DNA of 64,000 nucleotides from Dictyostelium discoideum (Eukaryota): the NCBI GenBank assembly GCA_000004695.1, contig CM000150.2, positions 4,320,001 to 4,384,000 on the forward strand. The letters are read 5' to 3'. The translations under genes and the position numbers were made by a program. Shown in pieces: positions 1-16,074 of this stretch (the stretch's first letter is position 1; every line of letters starts with the position of its first letter). The notes under the pieces were generated by a model. It was not told the origin of the DNA. It did not search any database and worked only from the letters and a program-made list of their open reading frames with translations.

Positions 1-1235
<1,235 letters not shown>

Positions 1236-1907
1236 TTTTAGTAAAAGCGTTTATATATATATAATAAATATATAATATATAAACTTTTTTTACACAAATA
1301 ATATTAAAATAAAAAAAATAAAAAAAATAAAAAAATAAAAAAAAAAAAACTAAAAAAAAATTAAAAAATTAAAAAATTTTTTAAAAAAAAAAAAAAAAAA
1401 AAAGGCAAAATATCTTCAAAAAAAAAAAAAAAAAAAATAAAATAAATAAAAAGAAAAATTGAAACAATTTTTGAAAATTCGGAATGTCAACCCCTTTTGT
1501 CAACACATTTTTTTAGTCAATTTTTTTTTATTTTGGTTAATCGCTCACAAATAAATATCAGATTGAGTTTATAAATAGGTTTTAAACATATAAGAGGGAC
1601 TTTAAAATAAAAAACAATTACAAAAAATGAATGATAAATAAATTCTAAAAATTTTTGATAAAAAAAAAAAAACAGAATGGTTACATTCATTTTTTTATAT
1701 TTTTATATATCATTTTGTGTATTTTTGAGTGCTCTATTTTTATATTCTATATTCATATTAAAAATAAAAAAAATTTAATCATTGTTTAAAAAAAAAAAAT
1801 TAATGAAAAAAAAAAAAAAAAAAATGAAAATCTCAGATTTCTTTTTGGTTTTTTTATTTTTTCCCCTCCTCCATATTAATTTTGAAATTATTGGATTTAT
1901 TTATTTA

Positions 1908-3986
1908 TTATTTTTGAATTAAAAATAATTCATCTAATTCAGATTTTGTAACAGTAGCAGGTGAAGAAGTCATTAATTCTTTACCACCAGAAGTTTTTGG
2001 AAAAGCAATAACATCACGAATTGAATTTGAATTTACTAATAGTGAACATAAACGATCAAAACCTAAAGCAATACCACCATGTGGTGGACAACCCATTGAA
2101 AGTGCAGTTAAAAGATGATTGAAACGTTGGACCATGTGTGGTTCCAATTTTAATACTTTTTCTAAAACACGTAATTGTACATCAGAGTTATGAATACGAA
2201 TTGAGCCACCACCCAATTCAACACCATTTATAACGATATCATAATGTTGGCCTCTAATCTTTGAATAATCAGATGGAGTTGATAATGGATTTAACAATAG
2301 ATCAATATCCTCTGGATGAGGAGCTGTGAATGGATGATGGGTTGATAATAGTGCTGATTGTTCATTCATGTAATCTGATGGAGTGAATAATGGGAAATCT
2401 ACAACCCACAAGAAATTGAATTGTTGTGGATCTAATTTTAATAAATTCAACTCTTTTAATAGATTTGCACAATAAATTCTAGTTTTACCAAGTGTTGATT
2501 CAACTTGGAATCTTGGACCAACACTAATTAATAAAACATCACCTTCTTTTAAATTCATTCTTTCAGTGATTAAAGTCTTTTCTTGTTCCGATATACTCTT
2601 TGAAATTAAAGATTTCCATTCATTATTTGATTTAATTTGTACAGTGATTATTGAATTTGATTCTGTAGTGATTTGATCAAGATGTTTGGATTTTAAAGTT
2701 GGTAAAACTTGATCTAATTTTATGCATTTAATGACAGGTTTAGATTCTTTGAAATTGTTTGATGCTTGAGATAATGCATTTTTAAATAGATTAATATTAG
2801 TTTCATCCTTATTGAAACAGTCTGTAATATCGACGAGTTTCATGTCATAACGAGTGTCAGGCTTATCAATACCATAGGTTGATAGAACTTGCTCATAGGT
2901 GTAGAATGGGAACTCATAGTCAATGTTGAAACCAGCCTCTTTCCAAAGTGTTTTAACCAATCCTTCAATGATACGATAAATCATTTGAGTATTTACAAAT
3001 GAAAGTTCCATATCGATTTGAGTGAATTCAGGTTGTCTATCTGAACGTAAATCTTCATCACGATAACAACGTGCCAATTGGAAATATCTGTCAATACCAC
3101 CTACCATAAGTAACTGTTTATATTGTTGGGGTGACTGTGGCAAGCTGTAGAATTGGCCTTGGTGTCTGGTTGGCACCAAATACTCTCTTGCACCCTCTGG
3201 TGTTGGTCTAAAGAGTGTTGGTGTTTCAACTTCAATGAATTGTTGATTGATTAAATAGTTTCTTGCTGCCATTGCTACCTTTGATCTTAATCTGATATTA
3301 CTTTGAACTTTGTCTCTTCTCAAATCAACATAACGATACTTTAATCTTAATTCCTCAGATACCGCAGTTGAATCATGTTCCACTGTAAATGGTAAATCCA
3401 CACAATTATTCAACAATTGTAATTGGTCAACTGAAATTTCAATTTCACCAGTTGACATATTCTTATTTACCATACGTTCTGGTCTTGCTATAACTTTACC
3501 TTTAATTGAAACAATTGATTCTAATTTAAAAAGTTTAATATTCTCTTCAATACTATTACGCTCATTTATATCAATATTTGGAACACTTGATTTTAATATA
3601 CATTGTTGTTTTAAATCAACATAACATTGAACTTTACCATGTCCATCTCTAATCACTAAAAATACGTTATCTCCTAAATTTCTTAATGAATTAATCCAAC
3701 CATAAATTATAACTTCTTTACCAATATCTTTACTTGTAATTTCACCACATGAATGACTTCTTTCAATAATATTTAAAATTTTATTATTTATATTTTCATT
3801 TTTATTATTATTTATGGTATTTGTAAAATTTCTTTTATTAAATTGATTAATTTGTTGATTTTTTATTATCGATGTGGTTGATGAAGTTGTGATATTTAAT
3901 AATGATAAACAATTTTTGTTTTTAATTATTGGTTTATTTAAAACATTTAAAAATATTTTAGAATCTTTTAATATTACTCGATTCAT
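1908..3986 (-). CDS. maspS: Aspartyl-tRNA synthetase, mitochondrial-type (bacterial-like class IIb), single exon, 692 aa
   Basis: Continuous ORF with ATG at 3986. Class II aaRS motifs are present: FRPTPEGAREYLVP, GGIDRYFQLARCYRDEDLRSDRQPEFTQIDMELSF, GGGSIRIH, GLAxGxDRL. An N-terminal OB-fold follows a basic Asn-rich presequence consistent with mitochondrial targeting. Confidence 0.9.
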   Translation of the reverse strand: MNRVILKDSKIFLNVLNKPIIKNKNCLSLLNITTSSTTSIIKNQQINQFNKRNFTNTINNNKNENINNKILNIIERSHSCGEITSKDIGKEVIIYGWINSLRNLGDNVFLVIRDGHGKVQCYVDLKQQCILKSSVPNIDINERNSIEENIKLFKLESIVSIKGKVIARPERMVNKNMSTGEIEISVDQLQLLNNCVDLPFTVEHDSTAVSEELRLKYRYVDLRRDKVQSNIRLRSKVAMAARNYLINQQFIEVETPTLFRPTPEGAREYLVPTRHQGQFYSLPQSPQQYKQLLMVGGIDRYFQLARCYRDEDLRSDRQPEFTQIDMELSFVNTQMIYRIIEGLVKTLWKEAGFNIDYEFPFYTYEQVLSTYGIDKPDTRYDMKLVDITDCFNKDETNINLFKNALSQASNNFKESKPVIKCIKLDQVLPTLKSKHLDQITTESNSIITVQIKSNNEWKSLISKSISEQEKTLITERMNLKEGDVLLISVGPRFQVESTLGKTRIYCANLLKELNLLKLDPQQFNFLWVVDFPLFTPSDYMNEQSALLSTHHPFTAPHPEDIDLLLNPLSTPSDYSKIRGQHYDIVINGVELGGGSIRIHNSDVQLRVLEKVLKLEPHMVQRFNHLLTALSMGCPPHGGIALGFDRLCSLLVNSNSIRDVIAFPKTSGGKELMTSSPATVTKSELDELFLIQK

Positions 3987-4264
3987 TTTTTTTTTTTTTT
4001 AAAAACAAAATAAATTGTTGAAACGAACGAAATGGTTGAATTTTATTTTTTTTTTTTTTTTTAATCACCCAACATTTTTTTTTTTTTTTTTTATTTTGAT
4101 TTTTTTTTTAATTTATTTATTTTTTTTTTTTTTTTTTTTTGGGAAAATTTTACTGAATTTGTGAATTCCCACATCATAATAATTATGTGTAATCCCAATG
4201 AATTTTACCAGGATAATAATGATTTTAATTAAATATTAATTATATTAATAATAAAAATAATAAA

Positions 4265-4270
<6 letters not shown>

Positions 4271-4343
<73 letters not shown>
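4271..4343. repeat. (AAT)n microsatellite
   Basis: Seen directly. It produces the spurious poly-Tyr ORF 4245..4448. Confidence 0.9.
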
Positions 4344-4345
<2 letters not shown>

Positions 4346-4793
4346 TAGTTTTTAAGTTATTTAAAAAAAAATAATATTTATGGGTTGCTTCAATAAATAA
4401 AAAACATAAAAAAAAAAAAAAAAATTCAAAATGTTTGGAAACAGACATAAATCAAATAAATAAATAATTTTTATTTTCCCACACAAAAAAAAAATTATTT
4501 AAAAATTTACTTTAATTATCTTTTTTTATTAAATCGCCGATTCTTCTGATTAATTTTCTGATTTAATTATTTTTTTCTTTTTTCTTTTTTCTTCATTTAA
4601 TTTTTTTATTTTTTTTATTTTTCCAATTTAAAATCTTCATCGTTACATATCTCATCTGCATTAATAAATCGATTTTTGAGAAACTCATCAATATGTTTTA
4701 AACTTTCCCTAAACTTTATAATCCTCTTTTTTTATTCAACATTTTTTTTTAAATCATTGATGATTCAATCCTGAAATGTATGGCGGTATTCCA

Positions 4794-4830
<37 letters not shown>

Positions 4831-5332
4831 TTAAATATAAAAATAATAAAAATAATAGTAATAATGATAATAATAAAAAATTAAAATAAAAAAATTAAAA
4901 AATAATAATAAATAAAAAAAAAAAAATAATAATAATAATAATTTAAAAAAAAAAAAATTAATATTAATTAATTAATAAAAGATAAGATAAATATATATAT
5001 ATCTTTTTTTTTTTTTTTAGAGTTGTTATTATCATCATCATCATCATCATCATCATCTCAATTTTTTTCTTTTTATGTTATGTATCTATATTGTGTTTTA
5101 AATCTCATGGGGGTCACATAGCATCATGATCAAATAAATTAAAATAAAAAAAAAAAATTAAAAGGGTATTTTTAAAAAAAAAACAAAATAAAATAAAATA
5201 AATAAAAAAAAAAGTAAATTAAAAAAATATTAACAATGTTATAAGATTCAGATTTGTCTAGTTTGGAACAATTATAATAATCAAACAATTAATTTTTATT
5301 GTCAAAAACATTCCCACACCCAATCAAACACA

Positions 5333-5366
<34 letters not shown>

Positions 5367-6131
5367 CTAAAATTATAACATGCCATTATTTTTATTTAAA
5401 AGTTATATTAAAATAATTCCTTTATTTAGGTCTTTCTTAATTTAAAAAAAAAAAAAATTCCTTTTTTTTTATTTTATTTTTTTTTTTTATTTATTTTTTT
5501 TTTTATGATTGTTGACACAATCGTACAAAAAATATGAATATATTTTTGTTTTTATTATTATAATGATATCAATAATTAATTAATTATATAATTAAAAAGA
5601 AAAAAAAAAAATAATAATAATAATAATAATAAAAAAGATTTCGAACTGGTATGATGATCAAATTTAATTTAACCCACTACCACTTATATATAACTACCAA
5701 CCACAGAATTGGAATATATATATACATATATCTATTTTTTTTTTAATTTTATTTTAATTTTTTTTCCTTTTTTTTCTTTTGTGGAATTACCCACACAATA
5801 TTGTGAATTAACCACACTCACTCACTCTCTATCATATCAACTACCTACTGTTGTTGTTCCCACCCAACCAAATTAATTTTTGAGTTAGTGAGGGTGGGTA
5901 TATGTTTTTTATTTTTAATTTTTATTTTTTTTTTATTTTTTTTTTATTTTCATTTTGTTGGAAAGATGGTAGTTTGTGTGTGTATGTGCCTCAAAAAAGT
6001 AAAATAATAAGTTTTTTATACACTCCCCTAATATATTAAAAAAATTGGTTATACAAATATACACCCACACTCTCTCAAACACACACTCTATTTTTTTTTT
6101 ATTCATTTAATTATATAATAATTATTTAATC

Positions 6132-6168
<37 letters not shown>

Positions 6169-6626
6169 CTAAACTAAATTAAAAAAAAAATAATAATAAA
6201 ATAATAAAAAAAAAAACATTAATTAATGGGTTTGTTGTAATTCTGTTAATTATTAAATAAATTAAATAATAAATAGTAACAATAAAAAAAAAAATAATAA
6301 AAATAATAATATCATCTCAATAAAGTTCATATATTAAAAAAAATAAAATAAAAAATAAAATAAAATAATTTAATTTAATTTAACATTGGCATTTATTATA
6401 TTATATTTTTTTTTAATTTATAATAAGCGCAGTGTCATATTTAACCAATTAATAGTATAAAATAATTTTTTTTTTTTTAAAAAAAAATAAATTTATAATT
6501 ATAAATACAATAACAATATAATTAGTATAGATAATCAAAAAAATCTTTAAAACAGTTGGTTTACTTTTTTTTTTTTTTTTTTTTAATTTCTTTATTTATT
6601 TGTTTTATTTTTTTTAACAAATATTG

Positions 6627-6668
<42 letters not shown>

Positions 6669-6855
6669 CACTTCATATACATACTTATATAAAAGTACAT
6701 ATAAGTAAATTTATTATATGTTAAAACATATTATTTATAAATTTTATTTATAAATTTTAAAAATTAAACAATTAATAAAAAAAATGGTTTATTTACATTC
6801 TACACACACACAAATACAAATAAATTCGCACACAAAAAAAAAAACACAGTATCCA

Positions 6856-6905
<50 letters not shown>

Positions 6906-7218
6906 ATAACAATAATAAAAAAAAAATTATATTATAATATTTGTGCCACATTAATAAAAAACTCAAGCAATAATAATAATAAAAAATAATAATAATAATA
7001 ATAATATTGAAAATAATAAAAATAATAAAAATAATAATATTTAATAATAAAACTATAATAATAACAAACCAAGGCCAAATATACTATACAATAAAAATTA
7101 TAATAATAAATAATATAATAAAATAATATAATAAATACTAATAATAATTTATTAGAAAATAGAATAAATAAAAAATAGATATTTAAATATTAAATAAAAA
7201 AAAAAATAAAAAAAAAAA

Positions 7219-8630
7219 ATGTATTATATAAATAACTCTACTGTTACAACGACACCAGCGCCAACACAAACCCCATACGACTCGAGAAGGTGTTACTGTG
7301 ATCCAGTATTTCAATTAGAAGAGGGAGAAGAATGTAACCCTGAAGGATGTTTAACATTATCAATTATATTTTTAATATTATATTTAATTCCAATTGTAAT
7401 TTGTATTTCTCGTTTCTATGAAATGAGAAATAGAAAAGATAGTGCATGGTCAATAGTTTCATTAGTTTTCTTATTTATAACAAGTTTGAGTATGTTTTTT
7501 TAAATAATAATTATTTTTCAAAAAAATTAAAAAAAAATTTATCTAAACACTTTTTTAGGTGAAAAAAAAAAAAAAAAAAAAAAAAAATTATCTGTAAAAA
7601 AAAAAAAATACTAATATTATTATTATTATTATTATTATTTAATAAAAAATTTATTATAGTTAGAATAATAAGATCAATATTATTAATAGTTAAATTTGAA
7701 AATTATTTAATTATGGGTCTTACATTTGTTTTACCTTTAGGTATTTTAATTTGTTCATATTTCAATACACTTTATGTTTGGGTTAAAATTATACATCACA
7801 TTAATTTTTCGAAGATGGTATCAAGAGTATTCCCATTCTTAGGTAAAGTTTTAATAGGTTCTCAAATTGTTTTAATGGTTTTATTAATTGCAACATGTTT
7901 AGCTGGTTGGTCGTTTTATGCAACAAATACACTTTTATTAGTTTTCTTGATTTATGGAGGGTAAAAAAAAAATTAAATATATATTATTTATTTTTAGAAT
8001 TATTCATATAGAATTTATATTTATTTATTAACATTTTATATTTATTTTTTTTAAAAAAAAAAAAAAAAAAAAATTAGTGTTGGATGTATTGTATTTGTAA
8101 AAATGATTTGGCAAGAATATAGAGATTTATCAGATAAAGATTGTGGTGTATTCAGTCAAACTAGTCATGAAAGAATTCAAAAAGTTTTAAAATTATCATC
8201 AACTGCAATCGTTATAACAATATTAACAGTTGGTATGGTAATTTGGAGTTTTAAACTTGAAGGTAAATTACCAATGTCTCAAATTTTAGCATATAATTTT
8301 ATTGGTCGTTTCATTGAAATCGTTTGGATTGGTGTAATGTTATTAGTATTAGCACCAAAATTGCAATCATGGGGTCAAAATTCCTCTTCAAGAACAAATA
8401 GAAACTCTAATCTCGATGATTTAAGTGATTCTTCAATTGACATTGAATCAAATGATGATTCTAGTAAAGAAAAAGATTTAACCTCTTGTAATAATAGCTC
8501 AAATTTAAATATTAATACAAATCATAATACTAGTTCAAGTCCAAATGTAAATAATAATTCAAATCAATCTTTAGAAGTTTCTGAAAATTTAAATAACAAA
8601 GATGATTTAATAGGTGGTGCTGATGTTTAA
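7219..8630 (+). CDS. Seven-transmembrane receptor-like membrane protein, about 370 aa; exons 7219..7489, 7660..7960, 8078..8630
   Basis: Three track ORFs join in frame through GTATGT (phase 1) and GTAAAA (phase 2) donors and the ttattatag and aaaattag acceptors. The product has a Cys-containing N-terminal ectodomain (RRCYCDPVFQLEEGEECNPEGC). Seven hydrophobic helices follow. The C-terminal tail is Ser/Asn-rich. Family is not identified. Confidence 0.55.
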
Positions 8631-8689
8631 ATATATAATTTAAATATATTTATTTCTTATTATTATTTTTTTTTTTTCTATATATCTAA

Positions 8690-8720
<31 letters not shown>

Positions 8721-8738
8721 GAAAATTTAAAATTAGAA

Positions 8739-8770
<32 letters not shown>

Positions 8771-8924
8771 AGTATAAAAAAAAAAAGAAAAAAAAAACAA
8801 AAGAAATAAACAAAAAGTAATTAAAAAAAAAAAAAAACTTTTAAACTAAATCAAATTAAGAAATTAAAGGAAATCTCTCTCTAACTCTCTCTCTCCTCCA
8901 ATAAAGATATTGTATTAAGAAAAG

Positions 8925-8969
<45 letters not shown>

Positions 8970-9079
8970 AACAAATTGTGTATATATATTTTTAATATTT
9001 ATTTATTTTTAGATTATTTTTTTTTTTTTTTTTAGATTTTTAGATTTTTAGATTTTTTTTTTAAAATTTTTTTTATTTT

Positions 9080-11224
9080 TTAATGGAACCATTTTTTCTT
9101 CTTTTGAGCATGTTCAGTTGGATTTGATTTATTTTTAAGATAATTATTTGCTAATTGATCAAATGATTCTTCAGATTTTCTTTTTTTAGAAGCAGCATCA
9201 ATAATATTTTGAGGTCTATTTAATAAAATTGATTTATCTTTAGGAATTGTAGTTGAAGTATGAATTGGTTTACCATTTATAAGTTGTTGTTTTTGTGGTG
9301 GTTTTTGTTGTTGTGGTTTTGATATAAATTGTTTAGTTGGTGGTTGTGGTTGTTGTTGTTGTTGTTTATGTTTTTTAATTAATTTTTCTTGAATTTTTTG
9401 AGTAATTTTTGGTTTTTTTGAATTCATATCTTTTAATTGTTGTTGTAATTTCTTCTTTTCAACTACTAATTGTTTTTGTTCATTTAAAGCATCGACATCA
9501 ACACCCTGTGATTCTAATTTAGCTCTTTGTTCTCTCTTCTTTTCTCTTTGTCTTTGACCTCTTGATAATTTCTTTTCAACTGGAATTGGTTTACCATTTT
9601 CATCTAGAGGTTGTTCTTTTCTTTGTTGTTTCTTTAAGATTGAACGTTCAATTTTTTGTTGTTGTTGTCTTTTAGCTTGTTTTTCTAAATAAATATTTTG
9701 TTTTTTAACAGCACGAGCATCTTCAACTGCAAATTGAGTGAATAAACGTTGACCTTTAGATTTTAAATTTGAAGGTGAAAAGAAGATCTTTGAATTGTTA
9801 TTGGTTTTATGAAGAATTTCAAGAGCACCTTGATGAGTTGAACATTCGATGAATGCGAAACCCTTGGATTTTGCTTTACCTTGAGCATTGACTCTTTCAT
9901 TGTCACAGGCTACTTTGGCAAATACAACCTTGTCTTTAATATTGGCAGTTTTTAATATTTTCATTGTGGCATTCTTTAAGATTGTATCGGTTACATGTAA
10001 TGGGAGATTTCTAATACATAAACGGGTTGGAGAAACGTAATAATTTGGATTAACTTTTAATTTTGTTTGATTCTCTTTATCAGCTTGGTTTCTTAATGCC
10101 CAATCTTTTTCATCCAATTCTTTACCTTCGGCAGAGTTTTGAATGATTTTACCAATGTTTAATAAATGTTTGTTCTTTTTATCGACATTTTCAACTTTCT
10201 TCTCTTTGTATGCTGTTGCTTGTTGATGATCAACTGCATAGCATACTACTAAACATCTACCATCCAACATGACACCACCTTGAAGTAATGATGAAACGGA
10301 TAATGAATTCTTTTTACTCTCTTTTTTACTATCCTTTTGATTTTTATTGATCTTGTCTTCCAATGATAAATCATATAATGGTGTACTTGAACATGCTTCA
10401 ACTGCTCTACGAGCATCATCTTGTTCATGATACTTTACAAATGCTTTACCTGTTGGTTTTTGTGTTAACTTATCCAATACTAATCTACAAAATACTAATT
10501 TACCATACTCTTCAAATTTAGCTCCTAAATCTTCTTCTTTTGTATCAAATGCCAAATTTCTAATAAATAATGTTTTTAATTCATCAACTTCTTTTTCTAA
10601 AAAAAAATAAATAAAAATAAATTAATAAATAAATATTTATTTTTAAATATATATATATACTTACTATTTCTAGTATGATCAATAGCCATTTTCTTTTTAA
10701 CATCTAATTTGCTTTCTTTTTTATCACCTTCACCATCTTCATCATCTTCATCATCTTCTCCTTCTTCCATATTATCATCATCTTCATCTTCTTCGTCATC
10801 TTCATCTTCATCATCATCATCAGTTTCTTCTTTCATTTCTTCATCTTCATTCTCATCTTTATTATCTTCTTTATCTTCATCTTCCTCATCTTCATCATCA
10901 TCATCATCATTATCTTTATTTTCTTTAGAATCTTGTTTTTGTTGTTGTTGTTTATCAAATTGTAATTGTTGATAATCATTTTGTTTAAGTGACCAATCAA
11001 TAACGATTTGTCTAGTGTGTATTTTTTCATTATTACATTCTTTAAGTACTTTTTCACTAGATTCTCTTTCTTTAAATGTTAAAAATGCAAAACCTCTTGG
11101 TGTATTTGTTCCTGGTTTTGTTGGTACTTTAACTAAAATTAATTGACCATAACTAGAAAATTTTTCAACAAGAAATTGAATATTTGTCTATTGGGAGGAG
11201 GAAGAGGGGTGAGAGGAAAATAAA

Positions 11225-11256
<32 letters not shown>

Positions 11257-11994
11257 AAAAAGAGAAATCTCTCTATTAATAAACTAAAATAAATAAATTA
11301 AAATAGTAATAATAATAATAAATAGACATACATTAAAACTTAAATTACGAATAATTAATTCATTTGCTTTTAAATTATCATTTTCGACAGCATATAAAAC
11401 TGATTTACCATTATTTTGTTTATTTTTAGTTAATTTTGTAACTACTTGTTTTAAATTTTCTTGATTTTCACAAACGATTCTAATTGCATCATTTGAATGT
11501 GGAATTGAATAAACTGCTTTAATAGTATCTTTCTTTAAACTAAGGAAATTTGAAACAAATACTTTCTCTGCAACTAAATTATTTGCAATTACTGAAAATT
11601 CTTTCTTTGTATTATATTGTTTAACTATTGGTTCTTCTGGTGTAGTGGTAGTAGTAGTAGTAGTTGCAGTTGTAGTATCTTTTGAATCTTTTGAATCTTT
11701 TGAATCTTTTGAATCTTTTGAATCTTTCTTTGATAATTTCTCTTTTGCAATAGAAACATGAATAATTTTACTTTTTAATTGTTTATTATTTTTTTCTTTA
11801 ATTGCTTTTTCAGCATGTTCAGCTAATGCATACCAAACGTATGCAATACCACTACAAACTTTTTCACCCTTTTCATTTTGTTTTGTAACTATAAAACATC
11901 TTTTTAATGGACCAATATCTGAAAAGAAATTTTCAAGATCTTCATTGGTTGTATCTGGTGTTAAACCTTTTACAAAAACTTGTTTATTATTCAT
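9080..11994 (-). CDS. Nucleolar multi-RRM RNA-binding protein (RBM28/Nop4-like); exons c(11332..11994), c(10665..11187), c(9080..10596)
   Basis: RRM1 (VFVKGLTPDTTNEDLENFFSDIGPLKRCFIV...GIAYVWYA), RRM2 (LIIRNLSFN|TNIQFLVEKFSSYGQLILVKV...RGFAFLTFKE), RRM3 (LFIRNLAFDTKEEDLGAKFEEYGKLVFCRLV...GKAFVKYHE) and RRM4 (KGFAFIECSTHQGA). An acidic D/E stretch and a Lys-rich C-terminus are also present. Introns are GTATGT...caatag (phase 0) and GTAAGT...ttttag (phase 1). Confidence 0.7.
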
Positions 11995-12328
11995 TATTAT
12001 TGATTTGATTTGATTTAATTTTGATTAATAATAATTATAATACTAATAATAAAAATAAAAACAATCGATAATTGGAATGAAAAAAAAAAAAAAATTAAAA
12101 AACGAAGCTTTCGTCGTGAATTTTATTTTTATTTTTTTTAATTTTAATTTTTTTTTATTTTTTATTTTTAATTTTTTTTTGTGTGAAAAAACGATGGGGA
12201 TTTTTTTATTTTTTATTTTTCCAACTTTTTTTTTTTTTTTTCCAACTTTTTTTTTTCCAAACAAATTTTATTATAAATTTGATTTGATTTTTTTTATCTT
12301 CTTTTTTTTTATTTTTTTTTTTTTATTT

Positions 12329-14911
12329 TTAAAAGAAATCTTCATAATCTTCATCTTTTGTTACGAGTGCATTTGGTTCGTTGTCATCATCATCATTGTC
12401 ATTAAATTTAATGGTTGAAGATGGTGGTATTGGTTGAGATTTTGAATTAATTGATGGTGATTTTGGTTTTGAAATTGGAATATTATCATCATCATCATCA
12501 TCTGAACTATCTATATTTTTTTTAACATGTGGATTAAAACTATCATCATCTGATTCTTCATCTTTAAATTTAACTGGTTTAGATTTTGGTTTTGAAATTT
12601 CTGTTGTTTGCTTTTTTACAATTGGTGGCATTATTGTTGTAGTTGTATTAATTTTTGGTGAAGATGATAAAGGAATTGGGTTCATCTTTGGTGAAGAAGA
12701 AGAAGAAGAGTTTGGTGACATTGGAGTAATTTTTGGTGAAGATGATAAAGGAATTGAATTCATTTTTGGTGATGATGACGGTTTTGGTGATAATGATGAT
12801 GTTGTTTGAGTTGAAGTTGGTGAATATGATAATTTTGGTGAGGGAGAAGAAGATTTAATTGGTGGTGATTTCTTTGTTACAGGTTTTTTAATTTCTTCAT
12901 CGTAATCAATATCTTTTGCAACTAAAGGGTTAAAATCATCTTCATCAGAATCATCATTAAATTTAATATTTGATGGTTTTTTATTATTATTATTACTATT
13001 ATTTACAAAACTATTATTTTTAAAGGCATCATCATCATCATCATCATCATCAAATTTAACTTCACTATTGCCAAACGGATTAAAATCATCTAAAGTTGAT
13101 GTATTTACTGATGATTTTTTATTACTATTTATTGTTGCCGTTGCTTTTGATGTCGATGGTGGTGGTGGTGTTGAAGTAACCTTTTTATCATCATCTTTTG
13201 GTTTAGATTGTGATGGTGAGGATTGACTTGAATTTGATGATGGTTTTTGTTGTGTAGAGGTTGTAGATGGAGATGTGGCAATTTTTGCTATTGATGGTTG
13301 TGGTTGTGATGATGTAGTGGAAGTAATTTTTTGTGATTGTTTTTGAGTTGTTGGTGGCGGTTTTTGTTGTGTAGTTTGTTGTTTCTTTTGTGATTTTGTT
13401 GGAGTTTTAGCTGAATAGAAATCATCTTCTTCTTTTGAAACCCAAGGATTATTATCACCATCATCATCGTCATCATCACTTCCAAATTTATCATTAAATT
13501 GTTGTTGTTGTTTATTTCCACCAGTAATAATATTCTTTAAGAAAGTAGTTTTTGAAGTTTTTTCACCATAGAAATCATCATCATCATATCCACCTGCAAC
13601 AAATTCATCAACACTTGATAATACTTTTGGCATTGCTGCAACTACTGATTTATTTTGTTGTATTTGTTTTTGCTGCTGCTGTTGTTGTTCTTGTTGTTGT
13701 TGTTGTTGTTGTTGCTGTTGTATTTGTTGTGAAGTTGACAAATTTGGTTCAGATTTTGAAAATAATCTTGAAAAGAAAGAACCTGATGAAGAAGTACTTG
13801 GTTGTGGTTGTTGTGGTGGTGATGATGAATTTGGTTTTGGTGTTGGTGATACTTGTGCAGGTGTTGGAGTTAGTTGTGATGGTATTGGTTGTGGTAATGG
13901 TATTGGTTGTGGTAATGGTTGATGTGGTTGCTGTATTTGTTGTGGTGGTTGTTGTTTTTGTTGTGTAATTCTCTTAATATGATTATTATAATCAGATTCT
14001 TTTAACATTATTGATAATTCATCTTTTGAAGATTGTAATTCAATTTTATTTCTTTCCAATTGTTGTATTAGTGATTTTCTTTGAATCTCTAGGAATGGTA
14101 TATTAAAGAATCTAACGATGTTTTGTAAACCATATGCATTTAACATTGAAGCTTCAATATGGGTGACATTATCCCTTGAATTGATTAATGTATCTATATC
14201 AGCATAAGTTACAATCGAATTCTTATCTTGAATATTATTATAAATTCCAATTGGATTTCTATCACGAAAGTTTGAAATTATTAAAATGAATTTATCAATT
14301 GGTACTTTATTAAACTCCTTTTCAATATATTTGAATGTCCATCGCTTTGATGGATCCATCATAAATATTACAGCATTAACATTTTTATATACATTAATGG
14401 TTTTTGAATCTAATCCACCAATTTTAAAACTACCTTTACCTTTAAATTTATTCATATCTGTTAATAATTTTGGATCGAATATATCTTCATTATTATTATT
14501 ATCATCATCATCATCATCATCATCAAAAAATGATTCATCAATTTTTTCATTATCATTATCATTATTATTATTATTTGATCTTTGTTGTGATTTATTTGAT
14601 GTTTTTAATGTGGTTGATGTTTTATTACTACTACTACTATTAGTGTTTGCAACATCTACTATATCCCAAATTTCAACATCTACAATATCATCTGTGTCTA
14701 TAAATATAATAATATTAATTAAAAAATGTTCATTCATATGAACTATTTATTATAAATAATAAATACAAACTTTTATAATCCCAATTAATATGTGATATTT
14801 GTATTTCTGGTGTTGGTGTATATAATTCTTTAAATGGTAATCCTTGAAGTCTATTAAATAATGATGTTTTGCCTGTATTTCTATCACCTTTAATAATAAA
14901 TTTCACTGTGA

Positions 14912-14986
<75 letters not shown>

Positions 14987-15232
14987 GTTATTATTATTAT
15001 TATTATTATTGTTGTTGTTGTTGTTATTATTTTTGATTAATAAAAAAAAAAAAAAAAGGAACATTGTATTAATATAAATTATTATTTCTTTATTATCATT
15101 ATTATTATTATTATTATAATTTAATTTTCGATTTGAAATTATTTACAATAATATTTAATTGATTTATTATTTAATTTCATTTTTAATTCAGGTTTCATTA
15201 TAGAAACATCTGAAGGTTTCATTTTTTATTTT
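12329..15232 (-). CDS. RABL6 (Rab-like 6 / Parf)-like atypical GTPase with a long low-complexity C-terminal extension; exons c(15147..15232), c(14771..14905), c(12329..14697)
   Basis: The spliced N-terminus reads [87 protein letters not shown]...FNIPFLEIQRKSLIQQLERN. It aligns with human RABL6 ([27 protein letters not shown]...[22 protein letters not shown]...FNIPFLQLQRETLLRQLETN). The P-loop is GDRNTGKT. The (ATT)n tract 14912..15030 is intronic. The exact start Met is uncertain. Confidence 0.75.
14912..15030. repeat. (ATT)n/(GTT)n microsatellite inside intron 1 of the RABL6-like gene
   Basis: Seen directly. Confidence 0.9.
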
Positions 15233-15300
15233 ATTTTATTTTATTTTTATTTTTATTTTTATTTGATGTATTAGTTTAATAGAAAATATGGGAATGAAAG

Positions 15301-15342
<42 letters not shown>

Positions 15343-15566
15343 TTTTGAAAATTTTTTTATTTTTCTTATATTTAATTTTTTATTTTTATATTTTTTATTT
15401 TTTTATTTTTATATTTTTTTTTGATATTTACAATGAAAGATCGTTCCACATTTTTAAAGTTTAAAATATCTAAAATTGATTATTATTTAAAAAATACCTA
15501 CAATTAAAATGGATGAAAATGATGAATCAGGCAATGAATCGGATGAACAAAGTATTTTTATTAATT

Positions 15567-15601
<35 letters not shown>

Positions 15602-15967
15602 CTGAATAGAGATATACTATTTTGGATTAATGACAAAAAAAAAAATATATATATTGGAGAAGTATTATATATAGAAATAATAAATATAAAAAAAAAAAAA
15701 CTAAAGAGAAAAAAAATATGGAAAGTTAAATATTTTTATAAAATTAATATCTTTATTATTTTTCCTATTACCAAAAAAGCATAAAAAAATAAGAAGCACA
15801 CAATTTTAGTAATTGATTTGTTTTATAAAAATAAAGATCACTAAAAATAAAATCAAAATATAACTCTTTTTTTTTTTTTTTTTTTATTATTATTTTATTA
15901 TTATAATTATTATCATTAATTATTTTTTATTATTTGAATAAAAATTTTTTATAAATTTATTTTTAGT

Positions 15968-15998
<31 letters not shown>

Positions 15999-16074
15999 TT
16001 TATAGTGGCAGTTATTTCAAAAGAAATGTTTAATATTTTTTTTTTTTATTTTTAAATTTCATTTGTTATATTTT

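Follow-up and report, generated by a model that had tools for sequence, protein, structure and literature searches.

The stretch of DNA analyzed here (the window) comprises 64,000 nucleotides (nt) of Dictyostelium discoideum chromosome 1 (GenBank assembly GCA_000004695.1, contig CM000150.2, positions 4,320,001 to 4,384,000 of the forward strand), and all coordinates count from its first letter. The window is extremely AT-rich, with a GC content per kb of ~0.11-0.34 and long homopolymer spacers. On its plus strand lies DDB_G0270154, a three-exon gene for a 374-residue protein with seven predicted transmembrane (TM) helices. A first-pass annotation, made from the raw AT-rich sequence with no tools, had joined three open reading frames (ORFs) at canonical splice signals into exactly this model and had proposed the topology as well. 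Indeed, the spliced product matches the NCBI hypothetical protein DDB_G0270154 (D. discoideum AX4, 374 aa) with 100% identity over 100% of its length. That annotation overstated its case in calling the gene unannotatable, because the identical model stands in NCBI and UniRef, where the protein is named “THH1/TOM1/TOM3 domain-containing protein”. Both the gene model and the family label are already in public databases, the protein is uncharacterised, and our literature search returned no paper naming the locus tag. As the gene is already catalogued, the biological value of finding it again is modest and would not surprise a specialist. What the present analysis adds is a confident predicted G-protein-coupled receptor (GPCR) fold for an uncharacterised Dictyostelium protein, the delimitation of a small family around it together with its signature residues, and evidence that the name “THH1/TOM1/TOM3 domain” used in the databases goes back to a remote similarity which the current Pfam model no longer picks up.

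Gene structure and comparative support

The features of the gene and its surroundings are collected in Table 1. The donor sites of DDB_G0270154 read ...TTTGA/gtatgt (exon 1) and ...GGAGG/gtaaaa (exon 2), and the acceptor sites ...ttatag/TTAGA (intron 1) and ...aattag/TGTTG (intron 2), where the slash marks the exon boundary. Orthologues from D. purpureum (L001), Polysphondylium violaceum (L002), and D. firmibasis (L005) were mapped onto genomic DNA, and each was found to contain exactly two introns, at positions homologous to those in D. discoideum (...ITSL/IRIIRS... and ...IYGG/VGCIVF...). The alignment of the orthologous proteins is gap-free over both exon junctions. An aspartyl-tRNA synthetase gene is the upstream minus-strand neighbor in D. 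discoideum, D. purpureum, and P. violaceum alike, and the loci are therefore orthologous.

The comparison with D. firmibasis is particularly informative at the nucleotide level. Identity amounts to 88.6% in exon 1, 91.4% in exon 2, and 89.9% in exon 3, as compared with 48% in intron 1, 47% in intron 2, and 39-57% in the flanks, so that it drops from ~0.9 to ~0.47 precisely at the predicted splice sites. Over 371 codons, the ratio of nonsynonymous to synonymous substitution rates (dN/dS) between the two orthologues is 0.108. A similarly sharp contrast is seen in base composition, with GC contents of 0.24-0.30 in the exons, 0.05-0.08 in the introns, and ~0.10 in the flanks. Taken together, these comparisons indicate that DDB_G0270154 is a real gene evolving under purifying selection. 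It could be objected that the models in the databases have been predicted too, and that the joined AT-rich ORFs yield a chance product to which no protein corresponds, or that the real gene is spliced differently. A chance ORF would not be expected to have two intron positions in common between four species, an ungapped alignment at both junctions, a low dN/dS along with a loss of identity at the splice sites, an abrupt change in GC content between exons and introns, and a spliced product for which a confident structure model is obtained (see below). The objection can be considered effectively refuted.

Table 1. Features of the DDB_G0270154 locus and its neighborhood (positions in the window; aa, amino acids).
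Feature	Position	Strand	Description
Coding sequence	7219-7489 + 7660-7960 + 8078-8630	+	1125 nt, 374 codons plus TAA stop; two GT..AG introns
Exon 1	7219-7489	+	aa 1-90 and first base of codon 91; starts with ATG; donor gtatgt; GC 0.30; predicted N-terminal lumenal/extracellular segment, TM1, intracellular loop 1, most of TM2
Four-Cys motif C25-Y-C27-D-P ... C39-N-P-x-G-C44	7291-7350	+	Immediately before TM1
Intron 1	7490-7659	+	170 nt, GT..AG, phase 1, GC 0.076
Exon 2	7660-7960	+	aa 91-190 and two bases of codon 191; predicted end of TM2 (R92, R95), TM3 (W131), intracellular loop 2 with invariant NFSK, TM4, start of TM5
Intron 2	7961-8077	+	117 nt, GT..AG, phase 2, GC 0.051
Exon 3	8078-8630	+	aa 191-374 and stop (TAA at 8628-8630); predicted rest of TM5, intracellular loop 3, TM6, TM7 (R268, E271), short helix-8-like turn, disordered Ser/Asn/Asp-rich tail
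Loop 3 motif K211-D-C-G-V-F-S217	8136-8156	+	Between helices 5 and 6 of the AlphaFold model; invariant in 7/7 orthologue-group sequences
Tail motif D304-D-L-S-D-S-S-I-D-I-E314	8415-8447	+	Short linear motif; 10/11 positions invariant in 7/7 orthologues
Aspartyl-tRNA synthetase-like ORF	1908-3986	-	692 aa, uninterrupted
Gene-free spacer	3987-7218		3.2 kb, GC 11-19%; no notable ORF, tRNA, or Rfam match
GC-richer islands in the spacer	~5640-5710, 5780-5900, 5960-6090		Small
Poly(A) runs	6840-6905, 8690-8780, 8915-8968		40-60 nt
RRM-type ORFs	9080-10555, 11284-11994	-	Large; probably exons of one gene
Low-complexity ORF	12329-14737	-	802 aa

A small dictyostelid family with a cysteine-rich signature

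A word-index search with the DDB_G0270154 protein returned seven proteins, all of them dictyostelid orthologues or fragments thereof. When a hidden Markov model (HMM) of the trimmed orthologue alignment was used to search 1.84 billion representatives exhaustively, the set grew to only 26 proteins at E ≤ 0.001. The named members are all dictyostelid, from the genera Dictyostelium, Acytostelium, Tieghemostelium, Cavenderia, Heterostelium, and Synstelium, and the remaining ones are found on environmental contigs of ~1 kb. No paralogue is present elsewhere in the 64-kb window.

The family signature is the N-terminal pattern CYCDP..C..GC, each of whose four cysteines is present in all of the sequences that cover the N-terminus (17/17 out of 20 aligned). 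Within the membrane core, the residues conserved across the 20 sequences are R95 in TM2 (95%), Y124 (80%) and W131 (100%) in TM3, the latter at the cytosolic end of the helix, and R268 in TM7 (90%); N180 in TM5 is conserved family-wide as well. The orthologue group has additional hallmarks. The motifs NFSK in loop 2, KDCGVFS in loop 3, and DDLSDSSIDIE in the tail are invariant or nearly so, and E271 in TM7 is conserved inside the group. The tail surrounding DDLSDSSIDIE cannot be aligned among the orthologues, and the motif holds the only S-x-S-x-x-D pattern of the tail in addition to CK2-type sites.

A second dictyostelid subfamily (P0014 and P0016-P0021) shares the CYCDP cap and the core residues, and is distinguished by AHG in loop 3 and by a conserved tail motif of its own, W[SA]xKMxx[LM]xF. 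Most of its genera (Tieghemostelium, Cavenderia, Heterostelium, Acytostelium, and Synstelium) were not among the matches to the orthologue group. The representatives searched included no member of this subfamily from D. discoideum, although one could be concealed, as they are clustered at 50% identity.

Three family members in which the seven-TM (7TM) region is joined to another domain were considered as functional clues and set aside. These are P0022 from Cavenderia fasciculata (L003, 1501-4905), with an EcKL/CHK kinase-like domain, P0024 from Heterostelium album (L004, 1501-5993), with a PAP2 phosphatase domain, and likewise P0017, with a TIG domain. In P0022 and P0024 the domains are joined over “introns” of 300-690 nt and a micro-exon of 12 aa, as compared with a dictyostelid norm of 60-100 nt for introns, and both are therefore probably merged gene models.

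Topology and predicted fold

Kyte-Doolittle hydropathy reveals seven hydrophobic segments in the 374-aa product. The putative cytosolic loops contain 3, 3, and 5 Lys and Arg residues (sum 11), as opposed to 1, 0, and 1 (sum 2) in the loops on the other side, and according to the positive-inside rule the N-terminus is therefore predicted to be outside and the C-terminus inside. The N-terminus of 44 residues contains NNST sequons and the four cysteines C25, C27, C39, and C44, and the 90-residue C-terminal tail, which is probably disordered, consists of 22% Ser, 22% Asn, and 11% Asp. The Cys-rich extracellular N-terminus, the seven hydrophobic helices, and the long Ser/Asn/Asp-rich tail described in the first-pass annotation are thereby all recovered.

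Given only seven sequences, AlphaFold produced a moderate model, with a predicted local distance difference test score (pLDDT) of 60 overall, 70-90 in the core, and <35 in the tail. With the 20-sequence family alignment and residues 22-296, the pLDDT rose to 87.1 and the predicted template modelling score (pTM) to 0.85. The model has helices at residues 41-72, 76-100, 106-137, 142-172, 176-210, 218-251, and 257-281, seven in all as in the hydropathy profile, followed by a short helix at 284-290. A Foldseek comparison of the model with the PDB was much less decisive, the best E being 2.3e-3 with TM-scores of 0.4-0.6 and with microbial rhodopsins listed beside GPCRs. A Pfam scan found no accessory domain beside the seven-helix core. 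The model thus suggests a generic GPCR-type seven-helix packing without a close structural relative in the PDB. The existence of the gene, the topology with a lumenal or extracellular N-terminus and a cytosolic C-terminus, and the predicted GPCR fold are the parts of our interpretation in which we place strong confidence.

Relation to the THH1/TOM1/TOM3 family

UniRef uses the THH1/TOM1/TOM3 name for DDB_G0270154 and also for several of its dictyostelid relatives. The corresponding Pfam family is PF06454 (formerly DUF1084), that of the tobamovirus multiplication proteins of plants, which has a gathering score of 25 bits. Like THH1/TOM1/TOM3 proteins, DDB_G0270154 is a seven-pass protein with a core of ~290 residues and no extra domains, and it shares with them seven predicted TM helices and an N-terminus predicted to be outside. 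Unlike them, it lacks a match to the current PF06454 model, and by the current Pfam criterion it is not a member of PF06454. The CYCDP..C..GC cap marks the dictyostelid family and DDLSDSSIDIE its orthologue group, and both are putative differences from TOM1.

The connection between the two families runs through the environmental member P0031, which passes PF06454 with 36.3 bits against the required 25, in agreement with its precomputed annotation. When left out of the family HMM and then scored against it, P0031 reaches 63.3 bits, whereas among 2000 block shuffles that preserve hydrophobicity the highest score is 18.1. With the orthologue profile, P0031 is retrieved at an E of 5.1e-4 for the whole library, and a comparison by hhalign of the six-sequence orthologue profile with P0031/P0034 gives a probability of 89.7% and an E of 1.9e-6 over 206 columns, extending from TM1 to TM7. 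Because of the PF06454 and family scores of P0031, the hhalign result, and the UniRef names, a distant kinship of the dictyostelid family with plant THH1/TOM1/TOM3 appears likely, though not proven. Two further searches retrieved no plant TOM1: a word-index search with P0031 returned only P0031 itself and one fragment, and a search with the 20-sequence alignment, in which 8000 word-sharing candidates were scored, returned eight proteins that had all been found already.

Comparison with GPCRs and other seven-helix proteins

The description of the protein as receptor-like in the first-pass annotation holds for the fold and does not extend to the sequence, since neither a GPCR sequence family nor any class A motif was matched. 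More specifically, DDB_G0270154 had no significant Pfam match at E ≤ 10, and none to the GPCR families (7tm_1/2/3, Dicty_CAR, and Frizzled), and the family consensus and 20/21 members were likewise without a match to any GPCR family in Pfam. A PDB sequence search with DDB_G0270154 alone returned nothing, and in a search with the family profile the best matches were unrelated membrane proteins at an E of 0.04, with no significant GPCR. The protein has the predicted 7TM fold in common with class A GPCRs, but differs from them in showing a sequence identity of only 5-12%, in having no 7tm_1 match, and in lacking DRY, NPxxY, and CWxP, none of which was found by a regular-expression scan. Instead, the conserved set in the family consists of an Arg in TM2, a Trp in TM3, and an Arg in TM7. 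The lack of a Dicty_CAR match likewise sets it apart from the Dictyostelium cAMP receptor/Crl family.

Two orphan groups of seven-helix proteins deserve separate mention. The RSF (“Remi-sans-famille”) GPCRs of choanoflagellates and other protists are orphan 7TM-only proteins that are absent from animals, have been reported in amoebozoans, and are connected to THH1/TOM1/TOM3 no more than weakly in structure (PMC12716839). In contrast to these proteins, DDB_G0270154 has a TM6-TM7 loop of ~5 residues without a helix and does not contain the RSF motif, and since the TM6-TM7 helix and the motif are what defines the RSF family (PMC12716839), membership in it was excluded. The other group is GPR137/GPR137B, a lysosomal GPCR-like regulator of Rag/mTORC1, which is also an orphan 7TM protein without extra domains. 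D. discoideum and eukaryotes at large are reported to have homologues of it (PMC12716839, citing Gan et al. 2019). An unverified human GPR137 sequence gave no Pfam match and no hhalign or hmmsearch signal against the family, which is uninformative either way.

A possible endomembrane scaffold and its alternatives

The explanation that we favor combines the elements above: DDB_G0270154 is a gene for a seven-helix protein of GPCR fold that is related to TOM1 and would act as a receptor-like scaffold in endomembranes. As a whole, this composite seems to us slightly better than an even bet. The scaffold mechanism taken by itself is a tentative suggestion, made by analogy, though we consider it the likeliest one. 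The plant TOM1 proteins are the only relatives whose function has been studied. These have a vacuolar/endomembrane localisation and ARL8 and TOM2A-type partners (PMC3234234, PMC10576174), and in split-ubiquitin assays no binding of TOM1 to GPA1, the plant G-alpha subunit, was observed (PMC2530877). A difference from the protein considered here is that the known role of plant TOM1, anchoring the tobamovirus replicase jointly with TOM2A and ARL8, is specific to plants and the virus.

By analogy with TOM1, DDB_G0270154 would sit in endomembranes, for example, endolysosomal or vacuolar ones. Its cytosolic face, made up of the KDCGVFS loop 3, the helix-8-like turn, and the DDLSDSSIDIE motif of the tail, which is acidic and Ser-rich, would bring in soluble partners such as ARL8-type small GTPases or regulate them, and classical coupling to heterotrimeric G proteins would not be expected. 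The endolysosomal, GTPase-facing role of GPR137/GPR137B is of the same kind as this proposed mechanism. The buried Arg/Trp/Arg/Glu residues, along with the disulfide-capable cap, could form a site for sensing a small molecule or lipid, and one might speculate that DDLSDSSIDIE serves as a phospho-regulated sorting or adaptor-binding signal.

Several observations weigh against this composite explanation. In the current Pfam, no PF06454 match at E ≤ 10 was obtained for DDB_G0270154, the family consensus, or 20/21 family members. In the exhaustive search of the 1.84 billion representatives, no plant TOM1 protein was reached by the family profile at E ≤ 0.001, so that the link to TOM1 depends on a single environmental intermediate, P0031, the N-terminus of which is truncated. 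In addition, the GPCR-like packing may reflect a bias of AlphaFold for any seven-helix protein, and the localisation, partners, and ligand of DDB_G0270154 are entirely inferred, by way of analogy.

The most substantial alternative is that DDB_G0270154 is a genuine GPCR of an unclassified amoebozoan class, located in the plasma membrane, which would bind an extracellular ligand under a disulfide-bonded cap and signal through a Dictyostelium G-alpha subunit, with its phosphorylatable SDSSID tail motif recruiting arrestin-like Adc proteins. Such a receptor would be consistent with the N-out/C-in topology, the N-terminal sequons and four cysteines, the helix-8-like turn after TM7, and the invariant tail motif, whose S-x-S-x-x-D pattern, the sole one in the tail, resembles PxPxxP, the phosphorylation code read by arrestins. 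Nonetheless, we regard this alternative as unlikely, as the missing Pfam GPCR matches, the absence of DRY, NPxxY, and CWxP, and the lack of sequence similarity to solved GPCRs all speak against it; moreover, the Foldseek E-values are weak and microbial rhodopsins score similarly, and TOM1, a member of the nearest named family, showed no G-alpha binding (PMC2530877). The resemblance to ion-pumping microbial rhodopsins at similar Foldseek E-values could in turn be taken to favor a transporter, channel, or lipid-handling protein of seven helices that has no more than its helix packing in common with GPCRs, as is the case for certain other seven-helix carriers, and whose conserved intramembrane Arg and Glu residues would line a substrate path. 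The charged residues kept inside the helices (R95 and R268 family-wide and E271 in the orthologue group), as well as the absence of a signaling motif, would fit such a protein, but no internal repeat and no transporter Pfam match were found, and the most conserved orthologue-specific elements, namely loop 3 and the tail motif, are predicted to be cytosolic, which would suit the binding of partners better. We consider this reading improbable.

A bolder version of the same ideas, which we likewise hold to be improbable, is that the dictyostelid “CYCDP” family constitutes an unrecognised functional class of GPCRs, or else the amoebozoan counterpart of lysosomal GPR137B/TOM1-type regulators. The Arg/Trp/Arg core would then sense a small molecule or lipid, with signaling via the KDCGVFS loop and the phosphorylatable DDLSDSSIDIE motif. 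To the best of our knowledge, the family is absent from published Dictyostelium GPCR repertoires. Should the family prove to be a working receptor or, as in the explanation that we favor, an endolysosomal GTPase scaffold, Dictyostelium would offer a tractable system for studying the cellular role of TOM1-like proteins. To our knowledge, plant TOM1 is known only as a factor exploited by tobamoviruses.

Neighborhood of the gene

DDB_G0270154 is flanked on both sides by the poly(A) runs listed in Table 1, which are typical of Dictyostelium intergenic DNA. Upstream, an unusually long spacer with A/T homopolymers and (TAA)n-type runs separates it from the synthetase ORF. The latter resembles an aspartyl-tRNA synthetase of the bacterial type, probably mitochondrial, and its counterpart upstream of the D. 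purpureum and P. violaceum orthologues carries the Pfam domains tRNA-synt_2 and GAD, such that local synteny is kept. Neither a tRNA nor an Rfam RNA was detected in positions 1-16000 of the window. Downstream, the two large minus-strand ORFs encode an RRM-type RNA-binding protein with Lys/Gln-rich regions, and the downstream neighbor in D. firmibasis (L005, 3577-5345) is an 865-aa protein with RRM_1 domains. The low-complexity ORF that follows contains runs of Asp, Ser, Pro, and Gln, and its N-terminal part resembles a small-GTPase-like domain.
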